The notes under the pieces: model-generated
Databases searched by the model: none
Told to the model about the DNA's origin: nothing
What the model saw: the letters and a program-made list of their open reading frames with translations, nothing else
Assembly: GCA_963533665.1 (NCBI GenBank)
Contig: CAUSPY010000003.1
Location: 6,925 to 70,924 of the forward strand
Direction of reading: 5' to 3'
Source of the DNA: an uncultured Candidatus Saccharibacteria bacterium
GTDB taxonomy: Bacteria > Patescibacteriota > Saccharimonadia > Saccharimonadales > Saccharimonadaceae
Length of the DNA stretch: 64,000 bases
Part shown: positions 38,454 through 48,044 of the stretch, piece after piece
Position numbering within the stretch: position 1 is the stretch's first letter
Layout of the letters: the number at the start of each line of letters is the position of its first letter
Position numbers and translations under genes: made by a program

Positions 38454-39062
38454 TTACTCTTCACGAGACGCCATGAATTTCTCTAGCTCTTGACTAAGAT
38501 TTAATGCCCTTTCCTCAAAAGGATGAAGTTCTACGACAACTATATCATCACCGCTTGTCTGGGCAATTTCAAAATAGTTAATTTTGTCGCCAGTCACAAA
38601 AACTCCCTTTATACAATTCACACCCCACTCCAAATCCCTTGCAGTCGAACTTGGCGCTGATTCACCAGGTAGATTTGCCGACAGCTTAAATAGCATGACA
38701 GAGCCAGTTTTCTTCCCTCTTGGCTCGCCAGATGTATGCGCACCAAAAGCCGTAACTGAGGTATTTAATTCTACTGGCATGTCGTAATAAGAACAAAGGA
38801 CACATTCATGAGGTCTAAATAACTTTGCTTTTACACTATCACCGCCGCAAATCTCCGAAAGACCTACCCCAAAGGTATTAACAAGTCCTTTACTAAGACT
38901 TGTTAACGCACGACCCATATTAACTTCCTCAGTGTTATCGGGTTGTTTCAATATTTCAGTAATTGTCTGCGCCTCTTCTTTCTCCCCAGGTCGTCGAACC
39001 TCTTTCGCCATTAGTTCCCACAAGTTATATCCACTCAAAATAGAAGGCTGCTCACTATTCAT
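38454..39062 (-). CDS. Hypothetical protein, paralogue 1 of an unrecognised family
   Basis: A 202-aa ORF that shares several colinear blocks with ORF 39336..40001, such as 'VKAKLFRPHECV' versus 'VRAKLFNPRQCF'. Confidence 0.55.
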   Translation of the reverse strand: MNSEQPSILSGYNLWELMAKEVRRPGEKEEAQTITEILKQPDNTEEVNMGRALTSLSKGLVNTFGVGLSEICGGDSVKAKLFRPHECVLCSYYDMPVELNTSVTAFGAHTSGEPRGKKTGSVMLFKLSANLPGESAPSSTARDLEWGVNCIKGVFVTGDKINYFEIAQTSGDDIVVVELHPFEERALNLSQELEKFMASREE

Positions 39063-39335: not shown

Positions 39336-40001
39336 CTACGCCGCAACCGCATCCTCGCGCGATTTGAGAAATTTATCAAGTTCATCTTGCAAACTTACTG
39401 CTTCTTTGCTTGACGGGTCAAATTCAATAATGACCGGATCCATGTAGCCCTCCTTTTTCGGAGCAAGCTGAAAATATGTAATAGCATCATCTTTCACGAC
39501 TGCGCCGTAGACGTCATTCTTATCCCGATCAGAGCCTACCGCCGTTGAAGGCGTAAAAGTCTCGCCAGCCGAATCTTCCGACATATTAAACAATATTACT
39601 AAACCTTCCCATTTTCTGGTAGTCCCACTTCGATGAACGCCGCGTTCATAAGCATCAAAAGCCGCGATAGGAACGGTCGTTTCTATTGGCGCAATCTGAG
39701 AGTTGCCGTCAAAACATTGGCGCGGATTAAATAACTTTGCCCGAACAATATTGGTATAAGATGTAATTTTTAACGTCAAATGAAATTGAAAATTTAGCGC
39801 AACATGAAGACCGTCCATCCGGCTATTACTGCGTACATAAAGATCTTCAACGCTGTCAGGCGATTCTAATACCGCATTAAGTTTTTCAATTCTTTCCTGA
39901 CCTTCCGTTTCACCATGTTCGACTGATTTTTCTGAGTTATCCGCACCGAATGTATCAGATTCATAACGTCCAATAAACGACGACCGAATACCTTTTTCCA
40001 T
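39336..40001 (-). CDS. Hypothetical protein, paralogue 2 of an unrecognised family
   Basis: A 221-aa ORF that shares colinear blocks with ORF 38454..39062, such as 'LQDELDKFLKSRE' versus 'LSQELEKFMASRE'. Confidence 0.55.
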   Translation of the reverse strand: MEKGIRSSFIGRYESDTFGADNSEKSVEHGETEGQERIEKLNAVLESPDSVEDLYVRSNSRMDGLHVALNFQFHLTLKITSYTNIVRAKLFNPRQCFDGNSQIAPIETTVPIAAFDAYERGVHRSGTTRKWEGLVILFNMSEDSAGETFTPSTAVGSDRDKNDVYGAVVKDDAITYFQLAPKKEGYMDPVIIEFDPSSKEAVSLQDELDKFLKSREDAVAA

Positions 40002-40643: not shown

Positions 40644-41465
40644 TTAATTATCACTCATAGCTTTCTGACATACATAAGCACCAGTATTGCACACAGCAAC
40701 CCTCCTTCGAGCAGCAGCCTCCTGACCATTTCTCTGACCAATCCATCTTTTCTGCTCTTCTGTCCAGCCATAAACATCAACACTTTTGCCAGCTCTTTCA
40801 AAAACAAGCTGTATCATTTCACCTACAATAGGCTCTAAACCCAACTGCTGTAAACTATGTGAATAGTGGTCCATAAAAATTTTCTGAATAGTATCATTTT
40901 GCTCAGCAGAAAGATATTGACCATTATGGCATGTTTTAACGGCTTCTCGCAAGCAGGCTTGGTTAGTCTCATCAATCTCTACGCCCAATTCTTGCAAATG
41001 GCATATCGTACGATTGATATACTTTTCTGCTTGCTGCGGTTTCCTCGCTTCATGTTGTGTTGATACTCCAACTAGCGGTCTATCAAGAGCGCCCTCTAGC
41101 AACATGAGCCCTGAAATACGACCTGAGTCTATATAGTCTGGAATCCTTAATTCATCCATAAAACCTCCATGAACACCTCTCAATAGTCCAGAGTATACAA
41201 CTGCAAGACTAATACTGTCATTGAGCGTATAAGTATAAAATGAATTAGCTTCTCTATTAGCTAACCAAGCTCTTGCAGGTGAAGTAGAAAAACATACACA
41301 ATAATCCTGATCCTCAGAAGGTATCAAACCCTCTCCAAGCATAGACTCAATCCCAGCAAAATCATACCCGCGAACAGCATGCCACAAAACTTTAGGATCA
41401 TTTATTATCTCTTGCGATGGCTTTTGTTGTAATAACTCGCGTTCGTTAGATAGTTTTTCTGTCAT
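40644..41465 (-). CDS. Hypothetical protein (orphan)
   Basis: Long ORF with no motif, signal peptide or TM recognised. ATG 41465 (MTEKLS) lies 7 nt after TGTTATAAT. Confidence 0.5.
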   Translation of the reverse strand: MTEKLSNERELLQQKPSQEIINDPKVLWHAVRGYDFAGIESMLGEGLIPSEDQDYCVCFSTSPARAWLANREANSFYTYTLNDSISLAVVYSGLLRGVHGGFMDELRIPDYIDSGRISGLMLLEGALDRPLVGVSTQHEARKPQQAEKYINRTICHLQELGVEIDETNQACLREAVKTCHNGQYLSAEQNDTIQKIFMDHYSHSLQQLGLEPIVGEMIQLVFERAGKSVDVYGWTEEQKRWIGQRNGQEAAARRRVAVCNTGAYVCQKAMSDN

Positions 41466-41622
41466 ATTTTTAATTATAACACAAATGTTTATAATATGCA
41501 AATTTACCGTACTAGTCCACCACCAATCCGCCCCGCCTTTGCAGTCAAAAATCAGGTTTCACACGTTACATAAAACATAACAAAGACCCGCTATTACCTA
41601 TTACCGTAGAAGCTTATCAATA

Positions 41623-41640: not shown

Positions 41641-42711
41641 ATGGCAAAGATTTCCCTCGATTTGGATGCTTTGAAAGCCGAGCGCGCTAGCCTGGGCGAT
41701 TTTTTAGCGCGTCCCGACGCGTATGGCTCGCCGGATTTCACGAGTAAAAATAAGCGGTTTTCAGAGCTGGAGACGCTTATTGCCAAGGGCGAAGAGCGGG
41801 CGGCATTGGAGCAAAATCTACGTGACGCCAAAGAATTAGCGAATGAGGGCGGCGAATTGGCAGAATTGGCAAAAGCTGAAATCACTGAAACTGAAGCGCG
41901 TCTGGCGGAGCTGGAAGAAGAATTATTTGTCTTACTGACACCTAAAGACCCGAATGATGAGAAAAATATCATCATAGAAATCCGTGCTGGTGCTGGCGGC
42001 GACGAAGCATCATTGTTTGCGGCGGAACTATACCGGATGTATCTACGCTGGTGCGAAGCCAATGGCTACAAAACTGAGCTTATCAGCGAATCCGCTAACG
42101 ATTCCGGCGGTTATAAAGAAGTTATTTTCATGGTCAAGGGCGACGCGCCATACGCCAAATTGAAATTTGAAGGCGGCGTCCACCGCGTCCAGCGCGTGCC
42201 AGTCACTGAAAGCCAAGGCCGCGTCCACACCTCGACCGTCACCGTAGCGGTGTTACCAGAGGCCGAGGAAGCTGACGTTGAAATTAATCCAAGCGACCTA
42301 CGCGTTGACATCTACCGCTCCAGCGGTAATGGCGGCCAAAGCGTCAACACCACTGACTCAGCGGTGCGCATCACTCACCTGCCGACTGGTATCGTCGTCA
42401 CCAACCAGGACGAGAAGTCACAGATTAAGAACCGCGAAAAAGCCATGAGTGTGCTGCGTTCGCGCTTGCTGCAGATGAAAATTGATGAGGAAAATGCCAA
42501 GTTAAGCGCTGAACGACGCTCATTAGTCGGTACTGGCGACCGCTCCGAAAAAATCCGCACCTATAACTTCCCGCAAGACCGCATCACCGACCACCGCATT
42601 CACTACAGCCGCAGCAATATCCCCGCAGCAATGAACGGGGATATTGACGATTTGATTGAGCAATTACAGCGGTATGAGCGGGAGTTGAAAGCGAAGAACG
42701 CCAGAAATTAA
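41641..42711 (+). CDS. prfA: Peptide chain release factor 1
   Basis: The PxT-type tripeptide 'PVT' ('[14 protein letters not shown]') and the GGQ motif ('[24 protein letters not shown]'). Confidence 0.96.
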
Positions 42712-42742
42712 TCATTAGGAGTTTTACTCCATACTATACCGA

Positions 42743-43156
42743 TTAATCTTCCAGTGATTCTAGATATCGCGCATGATCAGCTTCTAGCCCTCTAAGCCTT
42801 CTCCAAAAACTACTCAATTCTAGAACACCCTTATCGTCTATGTAACTTAGAACAAGCGCTGCACCGCCAGCTTCAATACGGCCCTTAACCTGCTCTAAGT
42901 AATTTAAATAAACAGGATTAACCTCATTCTCACGATTATCGTCCGATGTACGGCTACGTCCTCTATACATTAAATAACGAGCCTGATTGGCATCTGTTAT
43001 TATCCGATATTGCGTATTAGTCTCAGCAGCCGCTTGAATAGCAGCAGGAACGTCTTCTTGATGAAGTCTTGGTATGACTACTGCTCTATTATTAGAAACT
43101 GCAGCCTTCATAGAATTCATACTGTCAAGATCCACCTGTCTAATTATTTCCCTCAT
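42743..43156 (-). CDS. Hypothetical protein with a single copy of the island repeat domain
   Basis: ATG 43156 has the SD aaggaagggaagtgag. It contains 'YRIITDANQARYLM', 'EAGGAALVLSY' and 'SSFWRRLRGLE', which also occur in the two upstream genes. Confidence 0.55.
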   Translation of the reverse strand: MREIIRQVDLDSMNSMKAAVSNNRAVVIPRLHQEDVPAAIQAAAETNTQYRIITDANQARYLMYRGRSRTSDDNRENEVNPVYLNYLEQVKGRIEAGGAALVLSYIDDKGVLELSSFWRRLRGLEADHARYLESLED

Positions 43157-43187
43157 ATATCTCACTTCCCTTCCTTAAGCTACTTTG

Positions 43188-44108
43188 CTAATATCTCATT
43201 TCATTAGAATTTCCAGAATCAAATGTTTCTTTAAGTCTTCTATATTTTGTATAAAACTCCTCATCCAGCTGTCTTTCTCCGTCTCTATGCTCTATGACAA
43301 TTACTGCGCCGCCGTTTTGCATTAGACCCTCCACAAACGGTGCTACCTCTTCAAGCAGTTCAGAATCATCGGGCTTATATGACTCAATATGTCCTACATC
43401 TAGTCCCATTACCCCTGTTCTGCGTTGGTTTTCTGCAACCAGTAACTCGCAAGCCTTATTATAATCAGTTATCCTATGACAACCTAGACCAGCTTCGCAA
43501 GCGGCTAGTATGTTTATGGCTGCAAGACTACTATCTTTTGCGGGCCGCGCCGTTGCTCCTTCACCACGGACCATATCTACAAGAGAAGTCGGCGTCTCCC
43601 GCTCCCCTTCAGTCATAGACATACAGCCATCCCCTAAGGATTCTCTAGTAATTGGAAGTTCATCGTCTTCAGGATTCTCAGACAACTCAGAGTCAACGGA
43701 ATTAGAATTTGGCTGTTCACACCGGTCTTCTAACGTTTTCCAAAAGTTGTTTAGATTAGGCTGCTCATTGCCACAAGCTAAGGCAGCCACCGCGAAGCCA
43801 CGTTCAAGAAAACCTCTAGAAGTATTATCTATATATGACAGCTGCGAGTTAAGTTTCCAGCCAGGTTGCCATCCCTGACCCCATAAGCGCCACTCGTTTG
43901 CACTCAACAACTCGCAAGCTTCCTTATCATCTGATGTTATCACACGACATGACGTACCAGTGTCGGTGGCAGCCCGCCTAACAAGGTCTATGTCATCCTC
44001 TTTAAACCACCATGTTATTGCTCTATCGGCTAATAAACTAATAACCCAGTCATCAACACTTTCTGGGTTTCCTGGGCGTTCGCAACCCTCGCGTCCCGTT
44101 CTCTCCAT
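43188..44108 (-). CDS. Hypothetical protein with two copies of the island repeat domain separated by an acidic linker
   Basis: The SD is aaggaagtgagag. Copy 1 has 'CRVITSDDKEACELL...FAVAALACG...NNFWKTLEDR'. Copy 2 has 'CHRITDYNKACELLV...NGGAVIVIEH...EEFYTKYRRLKE'. Confidence 0.55.
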   Translation of the reverse strand: MERTGREGCERPGNPESVDDWVISLLADRAITWWFKEDDIDLVRRAATDTGTSCRVITSDDKEACELLSANEWRLWGQGWQPGWKLNSQLSYIDNTSRGFLERGFAVAALACGNEQPNLNNFWKTLEDRCEQPNSNSVDSELSENPEDDELPITRESLGDGCMSMTEGERETPTSLVDMVRGEGATARPAKDSSLAAINILAACEAGLGCHRITDYNKACELLVAENQRRTGVMGLDVGHIESYKPDDSELLEEVAPFVEGLMQNGGAVIVIEHRDGERQLDEEFYTKYRRLKETFDSGNSNEMRY

Positions 44109-44315
44109 CTAAACTCTCACTTCCTTGCCCACTATAATTTTTATTAGTGCTTCATATATTACTCTCTCTCTGAATTTGTCAAACAGTTTTACAATTTTTA
44201 TCTTATTTTGCAAGAAATGAACTTCCCGTCCCGCCACAATTTGACGCCAAGCGCAGCGGGATTATATAAAACAAACAAATATTACCATTAGCCATACTCT
44301 GGCAATTAATGCCAG

Positions 44316-45413
44316 TTAATAATACCCCTTTTCAATATCATGATATCGTTTACCGAACTCTTCCAATCCAATACTATGTATAGAGTCAGGCACTACAGCC
44401 ATCACCGCACCGCCATTCCTGATGGCTGTATCCGCACGAGTCATAAACCTATCGACCTTCTTATCAATCACCTCTACTATAGATCTACTTCTTACAGGCA
44501 CTGCGCTTCTGGCTGATTTTGCGTATCCGCAGCAAGTTCTTTCAGCTTCTTTTTTAGCAAGCATTTCAACTTTCTCCGGATCTGTTGTCGTATAACACGA
44601 TAAGCCAAGTTGTCTGGCGGCTTCCTGCATCGCCCATACCTTATGGTCGTCTCCCCCTGTCTGAACCAATGTCCAAGGGTGAGATAAAAACGGCGCTATC
44701 TCATTCTCGGACTCAGCGCTTATGCGCCTAACAAATGCGTAGGGCAGCCACTCGCCTTTTTTTTCAGCTTCGCGAGCGCGCTCTTCGCATGGATTATGAT
44801 AGTATCCTTTCAAATGAATTCCTAATAACGCCGCAGCTAAAACGTTATTTGAAACCAAAACAGAAATTGTAACCTCCTTTAGCTCCTCAGAATTAAAATA
44901 CATACCGCATACATAAGCAAGAGCGCCCAGAGTATTGAGTGTAGCATCCTGAATACGCAAATCTTTTCTATTTATTGAAGCCCCTAGCATATACAGCAAA
45001 TCCGCCCTCTGTAAATCAATCTTTCCATCTATCGCATCCTTGACATGGCATAGTTCATGCCGCAAAGTAGCGTCAGAATCAATACAATAACCAGTCTTTA
45101 CGACAACATCAAGTCCTTGGCTATCAGTTTTATTGATTGCCGCATGACCCAGTTCTCTACTTCTCAAATACGAAGAACCTTCAGCGCCAGTAACAACTAT
45201 CGATAAATCGCCCCAGCGATCTCTGGGGATACCAGCATACTTAAGATACTCTTTTAAGCTTTTTTCAGCAACATCAATAGTCTCGCCAGGCGCCAATTCA
45301 GCGCCTAATTTACGATCAAACTGAACCCTCGGAAAGTCTCCCCATTCTCCCCGCATAAACTCATTGCAGGCTGGGTTATCCGTTATGTGCAAACCTTCTG
45401 TGTAACTGCTCAT
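44316..45413 (-). CDS. Hypothetical HExxH (zinc-metallopeptidase-like) protein with a C-terminal island repeat domain
   Basis: 'TLRHELCHVKD' has its His codons at 45057-45059 and 45045-45047. The C-terminus has 'CYTTTDPEKVEMLA...NGGAVMAVVP...EEFGKRYHDIEKG'. Confidence 0.55.
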   Translation of the reverse strand: MSSYTEGLHITDNPACNEFMRGEWGDFPRVQFDRKLGAELAPGETIDVAEKSLKEYLKYAGIPRDRWGDLSIVVTGAEGSSYLRSRELGHAAINKTDSQGLDVVVKTGYCIDSDATLRHELCHVKDAIDGKIDLQRADLLYMLGASINRKDLRIQDATLNTLGALAYVCGMYFNSEELKEVTISVLVSNNVLAAALLGIHLKGYYHNPCEERAREAEKKGEWLPYAFVRRISAESENEIAPFLSHPWTLVQTGGDDHKVWAMQEAARQLGLSCYTTTDPEKVEMLAKKEAERTCCGYAKSARSAVPVRSRSIVEVIDKKVDRFMTRADTAIRNGGAVMAVVPDSIHSIGLEEFGKRYHDIEKGYY

Positions 45414-45419
45414 AAAGCA

Positions 45420-46022
45420 TTAAATCGCGCCAATCGCTTCCGCGCCCTCCAGCAGCTGCGCCAATTTATCAATTTCACCCGGACCGACTGGCTGGTCGTT
45501 TACCCCTAATCGTCTTTCTAGCTGCTTATTTTCCATAATATTATCTAATCTAGACACAACATCATCCATATTGGCGTTAAGTATACCAGGATCATTACCG
45601 CGTAATATATCGGATATTTCAGCTACACGCGTTGACAATGGTTTAGCATTCTCTATCACATCCGTGTTTAGATCATAACGCAGCACTTCATCCCGGTTTT
45701 CCATATGATATCGATATCTACTATTATCACCCAAACCGATATACTTAAGCATGTCTCCTTTATCATCTGAGTATGACCCAACTACAATAGACAGATCTTC
45801 ACTGTCCCCTAACGGCACTCTCAATTCAAGCGACGCCTGCTTTCCATTGCAGCCATCTGAATAAGCAAGCTTACGCACACTTACACTATCAGCAAACCGA
45901 AGTAGTAAATCGTCCACTAGCGCCGACATCTTATATGCCGCCTCCATTTTCTCGGCATCTGTTAAACTCTTTTGATTTTCAAACGGTTTGATGAAATCAA
46001 GGTTGCCTGACAGCTCTTTCAT
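45420..46022 (-). CDS. Hypothetical protein, first gene of the island
   Basis: A 200-aa ORF with no motif recognised. It ends 6 nt before the start of the HExxH gene. Confidence 0.5.
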   Translation of the reverse strand: MKELSGNLDFIKPFENQKSLTDAEKMEAAYKMSALVDDLLLRFADSVSVRKLAYSDGCNGKQASLELRVPLGDSEDLSIVVGSYSDDKGDMLKYIGLGDNSRYRYHMENRDEVLRYDLNTDVIENAKPLSTRVAEISDILRGNDPGILNANMDDVVSRLDNIMENKQLERRLGVNDQPVGPGEIDKLAQLLEGAEAIGAI

Positions 46023-46082
46023 TGGCTATCTCTCTATATTCATTATGAAATTTATTATCAATGGTGTATAATGTAGCATATA

Positions 46083-46919
46083 ATGCAAGAAAAGTCAACC
46101 ATATCGTTTTGGCTAAAGAATGCCGCCAAATCTCTGAAGGATGCCGGTATCTCCTCTGCGCGGCTAGACGCAGAATTAATCTTAGCCAATACCTTGCGAA
46201 AGAATCGGACATACCTTCATGCGCACCTGGATGAGGAGATTGATCCGCGCAGAGTTGACATCGCTAATGCGCGGCTGGATCTGCGGCTGGATCGCGTGCC
46301 AATGGCCTATATTCTGGGCTATAAAGAGTTTTACGGGCGCAAATTTACTGTTTCTCCCGCAGTATTAGTTCCCCGCCCCGAATCGGAGGATATGATTTCA
46401 CTATTTCTGGACGCGACAGCCGGCGAAATTGAACAGAAAGTATTGATCGACGTCGGGACTGGTTCGGGCTGCCTGGGGATTACAGCAGCGTTGGAACGGA
46501 CAAATATTTCCGTTATTTTATCAGACATCAGCAAAGATGTGCTCCGAATTGCCGAAAAAAATGCTGATGAGCACCACGCCCGCGTAAAAATCCAGCAGCA
46601 ATCGCTGCTGAATGGACAGCTAGAACCGGTGGATTACACTTTCGCCAATCTGCCTTATGTTGATAAGGACTGGGAAGTGTCGCCAGAGCTTCAGTACGAA
46701 CCGAAAATCGCCCTTTTTACCGAGGATGGCGGACTAAAATTAATCCTTGAGCTTATTCAGCAAGCACCGCGCTGCTTAACTCCAAACGGACAATTGTTTA
46801 TCGAGGCCGACCCGATACAGCACGAGCGAATAATACAAGCAGCCGCTAAGCAAAATTTTAAGTTAGCGGCGATTCAGCGTTATATTATCGTTTTACGATT
46901 TATAGGCAGCCAGCGTTAA
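46083..46919 (+). CDS. prmC: Release factor glutamine N5-methyltransferase PrmC/HemK
   Basis: SAM motif 'LIDVGTGSGCLGI'. The catalytic tetrapeptide position reads 'NLPY' (46647-46658) instead of NPPY. A TATAAT lies 10 nt before the ATG. Confidence 0.9.
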   Translation: MQEKSTISFWLKNAAKSLKDAGISSARLDAELILANTLRKNRTYLHAHLDEEIDPRRVDIANARLDLRLDRVPMAYILGYKEFYGRKFTVSPAVLVPRPESEDMISLFLDATAGEIEQKVLIDVGTGSGCLGITAALERTNISVILSDISKDVLRIAEKNADEHHARVKIQQQSLLNGQLEPVDYTFANLPYVDKDWEVSPELQYEPKIALFTEDGGLKLILELIQQAPRCLTPNGQLFIEADPIQHERIIQAAAKQNFKLAAIQRYIIVLRFIGSQR

Positions 46920-48044
46920 ATCCACCGTAATATTTTTCCCGGCGCGCACCAAAGTAACTTCGATCTTTTCGCCGGGCAGGTATTCCGAAACTAGCGTTGA
47001 CAATCCGCCGTCTTCACCAACGTTTTTATTATTAATCTTAGTGATAACATCGCCTTCTTTAATGCCGGCTGCATCCGCCGGGCCGCCAGTTTCTACGACG
47101 CCGCCCGAGTGTCCGCCGATATAAGCGCCAGATTTGACTGGCAAATTATATTCAGCCCGCACTTCCGGCGTAACCGCGACATAACGGACGCCAATGTAGG
47201 CTTTTTGCACACCTTTACCCTGTAAGACGCTTTTTGACATGCCCTTGGCGGCGTTAATCGGGATAGCAAACCCCATGCTCTGCGCGTCGGAAACAGTCGC
47301 CGTATTTATGCCGATAACCTGGCCGGACAAGTTAATCAGCGGGCCGCCAGAATTTCCCAAATTCACAGCAGCATCAGTTTGCAGCAAATCAGTTAACTCC
47401 TCGACTTTAGTTTTTCTATCATCAGACGAGGCCGATACTGGCCGCCCTTTGCCAGAGATAATACCACTGGTCACGCTGTTTTGATAGCGTCCCAGCGAAT
47501 TGCCGATAGCGATGACTTTTTGTCCCACTTTTACCGTACTGGAGTTGCCCAGCTCCGCTGCCGGTAAATTCTTAGCGTCCTTTATTTTTAAGAACGCAAT
47601 GTCGTTTAGCGGATCGCTGCCGACAATAGAAACACCAGCATACTGGCTGCCATCGCTGGTGATAATACGCACGCTGTCAGCGTCATCAACGACGTGATTA
47701 TTCGTCAATATATAGCCGTCAGGGCTGATGATGATACCTGTTCCCGCCCCTTGCTGAGCCCTGGTTAAGTAGCTGCCCTGAGTGGTTATTATCGAAACAA
47801 CGCTTGGCGACACCTTCGCTACGATCTTTGAGGTGTCGATTTCCTCATCAGTCAGCCGCAGATTACCATCAGGAATATTCGTTTGCGAGACATTTTGCCT
47901 GTTGTTCAACCTATAAACAACCCAACCCGCAAATACGCCGTTGCTAATGATTAATATCGCTGCCAGCACCGCGCCAATAGTCCAGAAAACTATCTTTTTA
48001 TTATTTCGCTTCACCTTGCTAGCTGCTGTCGTATTGTTGTCCAT
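46893..48044 (-). CDS. htrA: HtrA/DegP-family serine protease with a PDZ domain
   Basis: 'TNNHVV', 'NDIAFLK' and 'GNSGGPLINLSGQVIGINTA', plus a PDZ segment 'AAGIKEGDVITKIN'. Its 3' end overlaps the prmC 3' end by 27 nt. Confidence 0.9.
   Translation of the reverse strand: MDNNTTAASKVKRNNKKIVFWTIGAVLAAILIISNGVFAGWVVYRLNNRQNVSQTNIPDGNLRLTDEEIDTSKIVAKVSPSVVSIITTQGSYLTRAQQGAGTGIIISPDGYILTNNHVVDDADSVRIITSDGSQYAGVSIVGSDPLNDIAFLKIKDAKNLPAAELGNSSTVKVGQKVIAIGNSLGRYQNSVTSGIISGKGRPVSASSDDRKTKVEELTDLLQTDAAVNLGNSGGPLINLSGQVIGINTATVSDAQSMGFAIPINAAKGMSKSVLQGKGVQKAYIGVRYVAVTPEVRAEYNLPVKSGAYIGGHSGGVVETGGPADAAGIKEGDVITKINNKNVGEDGGLSTLVSEYLPGEKIEVTLVRAGKNITVDLTLAAYKS

Follow-up and report, generated by a model that had tools for sequence, protein, structure and literature searches.

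A candidate variable gene cluster between prfA and prmC in Candidatus Saccharibacteria

The prfA-prmC interval and its closest described counterparts

The Saccharibacteria live as obligate epibionts, their genomes are small (about 1 Mb) and their gene order is highly conserved; because of that conservation the sites that do vary between strains are prime candidates for determinants of host range, phage resistance and strain competition. The site considered here lies between prfA and prmC on a contig (CAUSPY010000003.1) of an uncultured Candidatus Saccharibacteria bacterium, within an analyzed stretch of 64,000 nucleotides that we refer to as the window. The two genes have the order and the shared strand of the canonical prfA-prmC (hemK) operon, and they are near one another, as in that operon. 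Unlike the canonical operon, the interval in this lineage always contains 1.2-4.7 kb of opposite-strand genes, and prmC has a promoter-like element of its own. In the window, prfA (41641..42711, +) and prmC (46083..46919, +) are the borders of four minus-strand open reading frames (ORFs), A200, B365, C306 and D137. In general character the cluster is akin to the variable clusters that occupy conserved chromosomal hotspots, with a zincin-like anchor, B365, in this case. The explanation that we favor, at somewhat less than even confidence, is that human-associated Candidatus Saccharibacteria have here, in a fixed slot, a variable gene cluster restricted to their lineage, in which a peptidase core has exchangeable partners, rather than a mobile insertion.

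Polymorphic toxin-immunity arrays and defense islets are like this cluster in occupying a fixed slot, with a variable number of paralogues, mosaic and exchanged alleles, and atypical composition. Unlike them, the cluster has no recognized toxin, immunity, trafficking or defense domain, its anchor gene is universally retained, and the paralogous domain is also fused to that anchor. Lit is a protease-based abortive infection (Abi) system that cleaves EF-Tu, and the likeness of such Abi proteases to an anti-phage role for the cluster, taken up below, is one of logic only. A pair of the ImmA/IrrE (M78)-Xre type was considered and ruled out, as Pfam finds neither a Peptidase_M78 nor a helix-turn-helix (HTH) domain in the four proteins.

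Further comparisons concern the N-terminal core of B365 (the B core). Zincins of several kinds, namely the M91 NleD-like effectors, M76 Atp23, DUF6782, SprT-like proteins and Tox-MPTase3, are like the B core in their small size and in combining a β-strand with an HExxH helix, and a Glu that is invariant in the B core, about 87 residues downstream of HExxH, could match the third zinc ligand of the gluzincins. The B core differs from these families in a signature of its own, HExxHxxD…Y-x5-E-x2-A-x2-A, and in the hydrophobic hairpin that separates the two motifs, and all of its matches to them are sub-threshold. In HtpX and the M48 family, HExxH is followed by two hydrophobic helices and then by a Glu motif with small residues, and the active site is on the cytoplasmic side. 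The B core has a like linear order and a predicted cytoplasmic active site, which we offer as an analogy only, and B365 is without the N-terminal transmembrane (TM) helices of HtpX. Membership in M48/HtpX was rejected: hhalign, with a hand-entered HtpX sequence, gave a probability of 3.2% over 19 columns, covering only the HExxH turn, and Pfam Peptidase_M48 does not match.

We can assign the cluster to no named system, and none of its three domain families is represented in the curated libraries that we searched. Pfam, NCBIfam, PHROGs and PADLOC gave nothing at threshold for the four proteins, whether these were searched singly or as whole alignments, and PDB sequence profiles of the B family, the B core, the A family and the R domain (the paralogous domain mentioned above) gave nothing below E ~0.1. 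The initial annotation of this stretch had recognized no housekeeping family among the four, and the negative results in these five libraries agree. Full-text searches of the literature returned no specific account of a hypervariable locus in Saccharibacteria. High synteny has been reported in Saccharibacteria group G1 (McLean et al. 2020, PMC7427843), which is consistent with variation being confined to slots.

Distribution and conserved core of the slot family

Scanning species-representative genomes with an alignment of the B365 family (the B alignment) yielded 26 loci, all titled Candidatus Saccharibacteria. Wherever both flanks of a locus are readable (the 26 loci together with metagenome contigs), a B homologue occupies the prmC-prfA interval and is encoded on the opposite strand; prmC adjoins the slot in all of the related loci. 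Some ENA metagenome contigs are identical to the window, and one related contig comes from a human oral metagenome. At least three clades share the slot, with prmC identities across them spanning 63-98%; the prmC of the other clades is 63-73% identical to that of the window.

In the window's own clade (prmC 91-98% identical to the window's), the prmC-prfA gap is 2.4-4.7 kb and holds an A200-like gene plus one or two that are B-like (R domain present or absent), together with one to three genes made up of R domains only, each having a single copy or a tandem pair. The second clade, with prmC about 63% and prfA about 89% identical to those of the window, has a constant 1,190-bp gap with a single B gene of 363-366 aa that includes the R domain. 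The slot of the third clade (loci L038, L039 and L046; prmC 70-73%) contains a core of 223-244 aa alone, with no R domain. A200 and the stand-alone R-domain genes are the only clade-specific, variable members of the slot. From these three states, the separation of prfA from prmC is ancestral to the lineage, with the core as a long-term resident and the lone core gene as the ancestral content of the slot. The R domain was fused to the core later, and the stand-alone R genes and A200, placed upstream of the B gene, are innovations of the window's clade. The initial annotation had described a cassette inserted into a core operon, and that description has to be given up, as the B family is in the same slot in every readable locus across at least three clades; the supposed recent insertion becomes an ancestral split. 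Among relatives, the junction has the same anchor gene throughout, although the companions of that gene vary, and in the window the composition of the cassette is not core-like.

B365 (44316..45413, minus strand, 365 aa) consists of an N-terminal module, the zincin-like core (44718..45413, residues 1 to ~232), and a C-terminal R domain (44316..44717, residues ~234-365), an α/β domain of about 120 aa. An exhaustive HMMER search with the B alignment found only 40 relatives among 1.84 billion cluster representatives. About 25 of the 40 are stand-alone proteins of 194-270 aa matching profile positions ~27-220, and the R domain is missing from the short B homologues (205-244 aa). One relative has a source name, Candidatus Saccharimonadales. 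Scans of IMG/VR with the B and A alignments found no relatives, and the core alignment (A5) found nothing in the JGI metagenomes. B365 is a member of an undescribed family that has so far been seen only in Saccharibacteria-type contexts.

The conserved features of the core are concentrated in two motifs. HELCHVKD is at residues 119-126 of B365 (HELCH at 119-123) and is followed by two hydrophobic helices (about 158-200), after which comes Y204-x5-E210-x2-A213-x2-A216. In the B alignment (A1), H119, E120, H123 and D126 are invariant. Across 29 aligned core sequences, with identities down to 18%, five positions are invariant (G89, E120, H123, E210 and A213) and four more reach at least 90% conservation (H119, D126, Y204 and A216). 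E210 is the Glu compared above with that of the gluzincins and is a candidate third metal ligand.

Matches to known peptidase families are faint. Peptidase_M91 gives a sub-threshold match in 16 of the 19 members of alignment A1, and the B core has other weak matches to DUF6782, M76, Tox-MPTase3 and SprT-like models and, in the PDB, to the M7 protease SnpA (E ~1). The Tox-MPTase3 match is sub-threshold and occurs in one of 29 members, a distant one (E 0.012). The best zincin E-values, 0.012-0.2 for the whole protein, cover just 30-40 residues around HExxH and correspond to scores below gathering. An AlphaFold2 (AF2) model of B365, built from the family alignment, has a mean predicted local distance difference test score (pLDDT) of 47.9 and is confident in the R domain only; it gives a helix over residues 113-128 at low confidence. 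We call the B core zincin-like because the motif is conserved, with no significant profile or fold match behind the name, and on this basis it is most likely a new, small zincin-like family.

The hydrophobic hairpin of B365 has a maximum KD19 hydropathy of 1.93, at residue 181, and TM-like helices are clearer in distant members of the core family. Lysine and arginine residues flank the hairpin, and its two helices are joined by an acidic loop. All four proteins of the cluster are acidic, and by hydropathy none has an N-terminal hydrophobic segment, in line with the initial annotation, which had noted no obvious signal peptide. The lack of a signal peptide, the K/R flanks and the acidic connecting loop suggest an N-in/C-in topology for B365, in which the motif residues and the R domain would be in the cytoplasm.

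We also considered the surroundings of distant core genes, in eight look-ups. The prmC/prfA slot was found again in L038 and L046. The core is directly downstream of prfB (RF2), on the same strand, in L041 (4872-6813) and L042, and downstream of tuf (EF-Tu), also on the same strand, in L040 (4764-6735). In the remaining cases it is divergent from rpsB-tsf (L044), between mutM and holA (L037), or beside a GmrSD_C gene (L043). Two independent adjacencies of the core to class-I release-factor genes are suggestive, in a sample too small to establish a functional link; adjacency is no proof of such a link in genomes that are small and rich in translation genes, and when the look-ups are few.

Companion domains, allele exchange and competing explanations

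The R domain, of about 120 aa, is common to the C-terminus of B365, the two halves of C306 and D137, so that the architecture of the cluster is A / B(core + R) / R-R / R. Pairwise BLASTP matches among the R-domain proteins of the window are weak (E 0.002-0.05, with D137 against both halves of C306 at 0.002-0.006). The initial annotation had proposed a shared repeated domain, and it is real: a hidden Markov model (HMM) built from the four copies in the window picks up independent genes elsewhere, in other genomes, with E of 1e-9 to 1e-18, and by HMM every slot gene in the other loci that is neither A-like nor B-like belongs to this domain. C306 (43188..44108, minus strand; 306 aa, pI 4.5) is made up of two tandem R domains (residues ~16-139 and ~171-302; HMM E 1e-41 and 1.7e-41) with an acidic linker between them, and only seven homologues of it were found. 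D137 (42743..43156, minus strand) is a stand-alone R domain (HMM E 6.9e-39), and its relatives in other loci are 26-46% identical to it. Its length is 137 aa from the ATG, the start chosen by an independent gene caller run on the source contig, and would be 140 aa from an alternative GTG at 43165.

In the AF2 model of B365, the R domain has a pLDDT of 75-91 and the order β-α-β-α-α-β-α. A non-redundant alignment of 13 R domains has a conserved Trp, QAA..TGT.Y, one invariant Arg, GGAVVALA and GLS.FW..Y..L. The domain has no relative in PDB profiles or Pfam, and an HMM search of the 64-kb window brought up no additional member of the A, B-core or R families.

A200 (45420..46022, minus strand; 200 aa, pI 4.6) is an orphan. 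Its N-terminal helix and about 40 C-terminal residues (…LGVNDQPVGPxEIDKLAQLLEGAEAIGAI) are conserved, and its center is hypervariable and indel-rich (alignment A2). None of its 62 homologues has a source name other than "hypothetical protein." The AF2 model of A200 has a pLDDT of 51.7; Foldseek with this model found nothing in the PDB at E ≤ 0.001, and there is no PDB profile match. Recombination breakpoints occur in A200 at about 45888 and 45530. On one 2.6-kb contig, a protein of 234 aa (P0023) has an A200-like C-terminal part (…LGVNDQPV) joined to residue ~62 of a B-like protein, and is either a deletion fusion or an assembly artifact.

The cassette is a compositional outlier. Its GC content is 0.429, against 0.476 (standard deviation 0.015) for equal-sized windows, which places it in the lowest 1%, and GC at third codon positions (GC3) is 0.27-0.39 in its genes versus 0.50-0.62 in the core genes on either side. 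No other equal-sized stretch of the 64-kb window has so large a tetranucleotide distance. The AT-richness that the initial annotation had judged by eye is thus borne out by computation, and atypical composition is common to other lineage-specific orphan genes nearby.

By DNA comparison, the flanks are 93-95% identical in nucleotide sequence to those of other species of the window's clade, while the interior of the cassette is mosaic. Breakpoints recur at ~45888, 45530/45280, 45007-45338, 44813-44105 and 42711-42719. Identity breaks sharply at 42711/42719, the 3' end of prfA, in all comparisons, and this end acts as a recombination anchor. A conserved block of 124 bp (44099..44222, minus strand), situated in the gap between B365 and C306 (44109-44315), recurs with 91-94% identity upstream of R genes at non-orthologous positions in three loci (L008, L011 and L015). 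One locus of the second clade (L020; 9041-10060) has gained an R gene whose identity to the R gene next to prfA in L007 and L017 of clade 1 is about 81%. On one side of this extra gene is a duplicate of about 130 bp from the 3' end of prfA (91.7% identical to the intact gene over 132 nt), and on the other it is abutted by the intact prfA, an arrangement that is a recombination footprint.

Nonsynonymous and synonymous divergence (dN and dS) were estimated as codon-based distances (NG86). The dN/dS ratio is 0.02-0.17 for htrA, prmC, prfA, rpmE and rpsB and 0.4-0.56 for A200, B365 and C306; from this difference, the cassette genes are coding and under purifying but much relaxed selection. Where an allele type is shared, the synonymous divergence of the orphan genes is lower than that of the adjacent core genes. 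C306 and D137 are 100% and 98.5% identical to their counterparts in L014, with a dS of 0, compared with 0.42 for prfA and 0.24 for prmC. For A200 in L013, L007 and L011, dS is 0-0.05 versus 0.2-0.3 in the flanks, and for the second-clade B gene (loci L019-L033) it is 0.004-0.29 versus 0.1-0.9. Lower dS in the cassette than in its flanks points to recent allele transfer between species-level lineages by homologous recombination, or else to chimerism of metagenome-assembled genomes. Among the species representatives, the B or C genes are split into two or three ORFs in L011, L017, L018, L034 and L035, with L014 also counted among such loci, and the R domain of B is a separate ORF of 110-143 aa in L017, L018 and L034. 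These splits may be real pseudogenes, programmed splits or assembly errors.

Our best reading of this pattern is that the cluster is under diversifying or conflict-driven selection. The B core would be an enzyme like the zinc metallopeptidases, tethered by its helical hairpin to the membrane on the cytoplasmic side. A200 and the R domains, whether fused to B or free, would be cytoplasmic partners that gate or direct the core as regulators, adaptors or decoys. Diversification and lateral exchange of R and A200 would then reflect an antagonistic interaction, most plausibly with phages or other invading elements. The bacterial host of the epibiont is a less likely antagonist, because every component looks cytoplasmic.

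There is a good deal to set against this explanation. No curated zincin model in Pfam reaches threshold for the B core, the AF2 core is unusable (pLDDT <50 for residues 1-236), and Foldseek matched the B365 model to nothing in the PDB or BFVD at E ≤ 0.001. The hydrophobic helices in the B365 of the window are only borderline for a TM span, and hhalign of the B family against the hand-entered sequence of E. coli HtpX gave a probability of 3%. PADLOC-DB v2 returned 0 families at E ≤ 1 for the four proteins and two neighboring orphans. One Arg is the sole invariant polar residue of the R domain, and for that reason the role of partner or regulator that we give it is a guess. Fragmentation, dN/dS of about 0.5 and AT-richness would also be expected of a decaying, dispensable region. 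Finally, the mosaicism, the segments with dS = 0 and the frameshifts are from metagenome assemblies, and strain chimerism could contribute to them.

The rival that fares best is an anti-phage, Abi-like module in which a membrane-proximal protease is served by R and A as variable sensors or decoys. It overlaps the favored explanation, being a more specific version of it, and in this specific form we consider it unlikely. Its components are cytoplasmic, acidic and fast-evolving, with cross-species alleles, variable copy number and outlying composition, and such features are typical hallmarks of defense islets; the distant homologues that adjoin the translation-factor genes prfA, prfB (L041/L042) and tuf (L040) would fit as well. 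However, there is no PADLOC match, and the anchor gene is fixed and syntenic across the lineage rather than patchy. The neighboring translation genes may just mirror how densely such genes are packed in a genome of about 1 Mb, as other homologues are next to mutM/holA, GmrSD_C and rpsB.

It is likewise unlikely, in our view, that this is a dispensable, decaying region, a "junk slot" in which orphan genes drift under weak selection and form no coherent system. The dN/dS of about 0.5, the AT-rich GC3 and the ORFs split in five loci (L011, L017, L018, L034 and L035) would all be accounted for in this way, and the neighboring slots, described in the last section, behave alike. Yet dN/dS stays below 1 over long divergence, the HExxH…E motif is conserved down to 18% identity, and intact ORFs with good Shine-Dalgarno (SD) sequences are present in the window and in many other genomes. 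The B gene is kept in every genome of a lineage given to genome streamlining, and a conserved promoter block is reused upstream of R genes. Identical alleles also occur in diverged backgrounds, which argues for recent spread and not for slow decay.

The initial annotation, in pointing to a peptidase-like protein beside an array of paralogous domains, had likened the cluster to toxin/immunity, defense or host-interaction cassettes. The peptidase-like protein, the array and a variability of the kind seen in genetic conflicts all stand, and the toxin/immunity part does not hold up well. In that account, B365 is a metallopeptidase toxin, the R genes are cognate and orphan immunity genes, and the setting is competition between strains. 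A peptidase-like gene followed by a variable number of small paralogues, with mosaic alleles and lateral exchange, is what such an array would look like, and the sub-threshold Tox-MPTase3 match of one distant member (E 0.012) points the same way. We nevertheless regard a polymorphic toxin as improbable, given that there is no signal peptide, no LXG/WXG, Rhs or other trafficking domain, and no Pfam toxin at threshold. Moreover, clades 1 and 2 have the would-be immunity domain fused to the "toxin" itself, cores that stand alone and lack a partner gene downstream are found in clade 2, clade 3 and distant relatives, and the B gene is universally retained in a reduced genome.

That a recently acquired mobile island split a prfA-prmC operon, the framing of the initial annotation, is scarcely credible: it would account for the opposite strand, the low GC (lowest 1% of windows), the highest tetranucleotide deviation and the promoter-like element of prmC, but the same family is in the same slot in three clades with prmC identities of 63-98%, and the locus has no tRNA, no border or flanking repeat, no integrase or transposase match (PHROGs, Pfam) and no phage homologue.

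A bolder form of the favored explanation, that of a lineage-restricted cluster with a peptidase core, starts from the neighbors of the distant homologues. The cores would be Saccharibacteria-specific membrane-anchored metallopeptidases placed by prfA, prfB and tuf and, together with R and A200, would constitute a new protease-based conflict system acting on the translation machinery, with hypervariable sensors or specificity modules that are exchanged between species. We regard this as a long shot. If it were true, such a system would serve phage defense or the control of epibiont-host interaction.

The locus is a concrete, mappable hotspot with conserved anchors, prmC and prfA, and its alleles appear to move between species-level lineages. 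Should the core prove to be an active protease regulated by variable partners, the locus would add a small new system peculiar to the candidate phyla radiation (CPR). If the core is not an active protease, the locus would still be useful for strain typing and for studies of recombination in oral TM7. Orphan variable genes in a CPR genome will be no great surprise to a specialist, and the function discussed here is inferred.

Layout, signals and neighboring genes

The ORFs, spacings, SD contexts and HExxH motif of the initial annotation are all found in the sequence and ORF calls at the positions it gave. prfA (RF1; Pfam PCRF and RF-1 domains) is the right-hand anchor of the slot, and prmC (Pfam PrmC_N and MTS domains) is the left-hand anchor. 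A200 and B365 are separated by 6 nt, B365 and C306 by 207 nt, and C306 and D137 by 31 nt. The SD contexts aaggaagtgagag (C306) and aaggaagggaagtgag are present and nearly identical. The block at 44099-44222 holds a TTGACA in addition to the SD aaggaagtgagag of C306, and a direct repeat (D2) ties it to the SD region of D137. Of the TTGACA-N17 promoter-like element noted ahead of C306, the TTGACA is confirmed; the accompanying -10, either TAATAT at 15 nt or ATATAT at 17 nt, is imperfect, and a promoter scanner made no call. Rfam has nothing in the region 41.5-47 kb.

A divergent promoter region of 60 bp (46023..46082) separates A200 on the minus strand from prmC on the plus strand. Promoter-like hexamers are found on both of its strands, including, on the plus strand (46045-46072), the TATAAT that the initial annotation had assigned to prmC, which ends 10 nt before the ATG. 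At its other end, prmC overlaps a convergent htrA-like serine protease gene (46893-48044, minus strand) by 27 nt (46893-46919), and this overlap is kept in all of the related loci.

What is seen in the prfA/prmC slot is seen as well in the neighboring gaps between core genes. The rpmE-rpsB gap contains two paralogous orphans (E 5e-23), U221 (38454-39062, minus strand) and U202 (39336-40001, minus strand), which vary in copy number and alleles between relatives. The gap between prfA and rpmE holds an orphan of 285 aa, U285 (40644-41501, minus strand), which is replaced elsewhere by U202/U221-like genes, or by UDG and others. The second most deviant tetranucleotide content in the window is that of the region at 38.2-38.4 kb.

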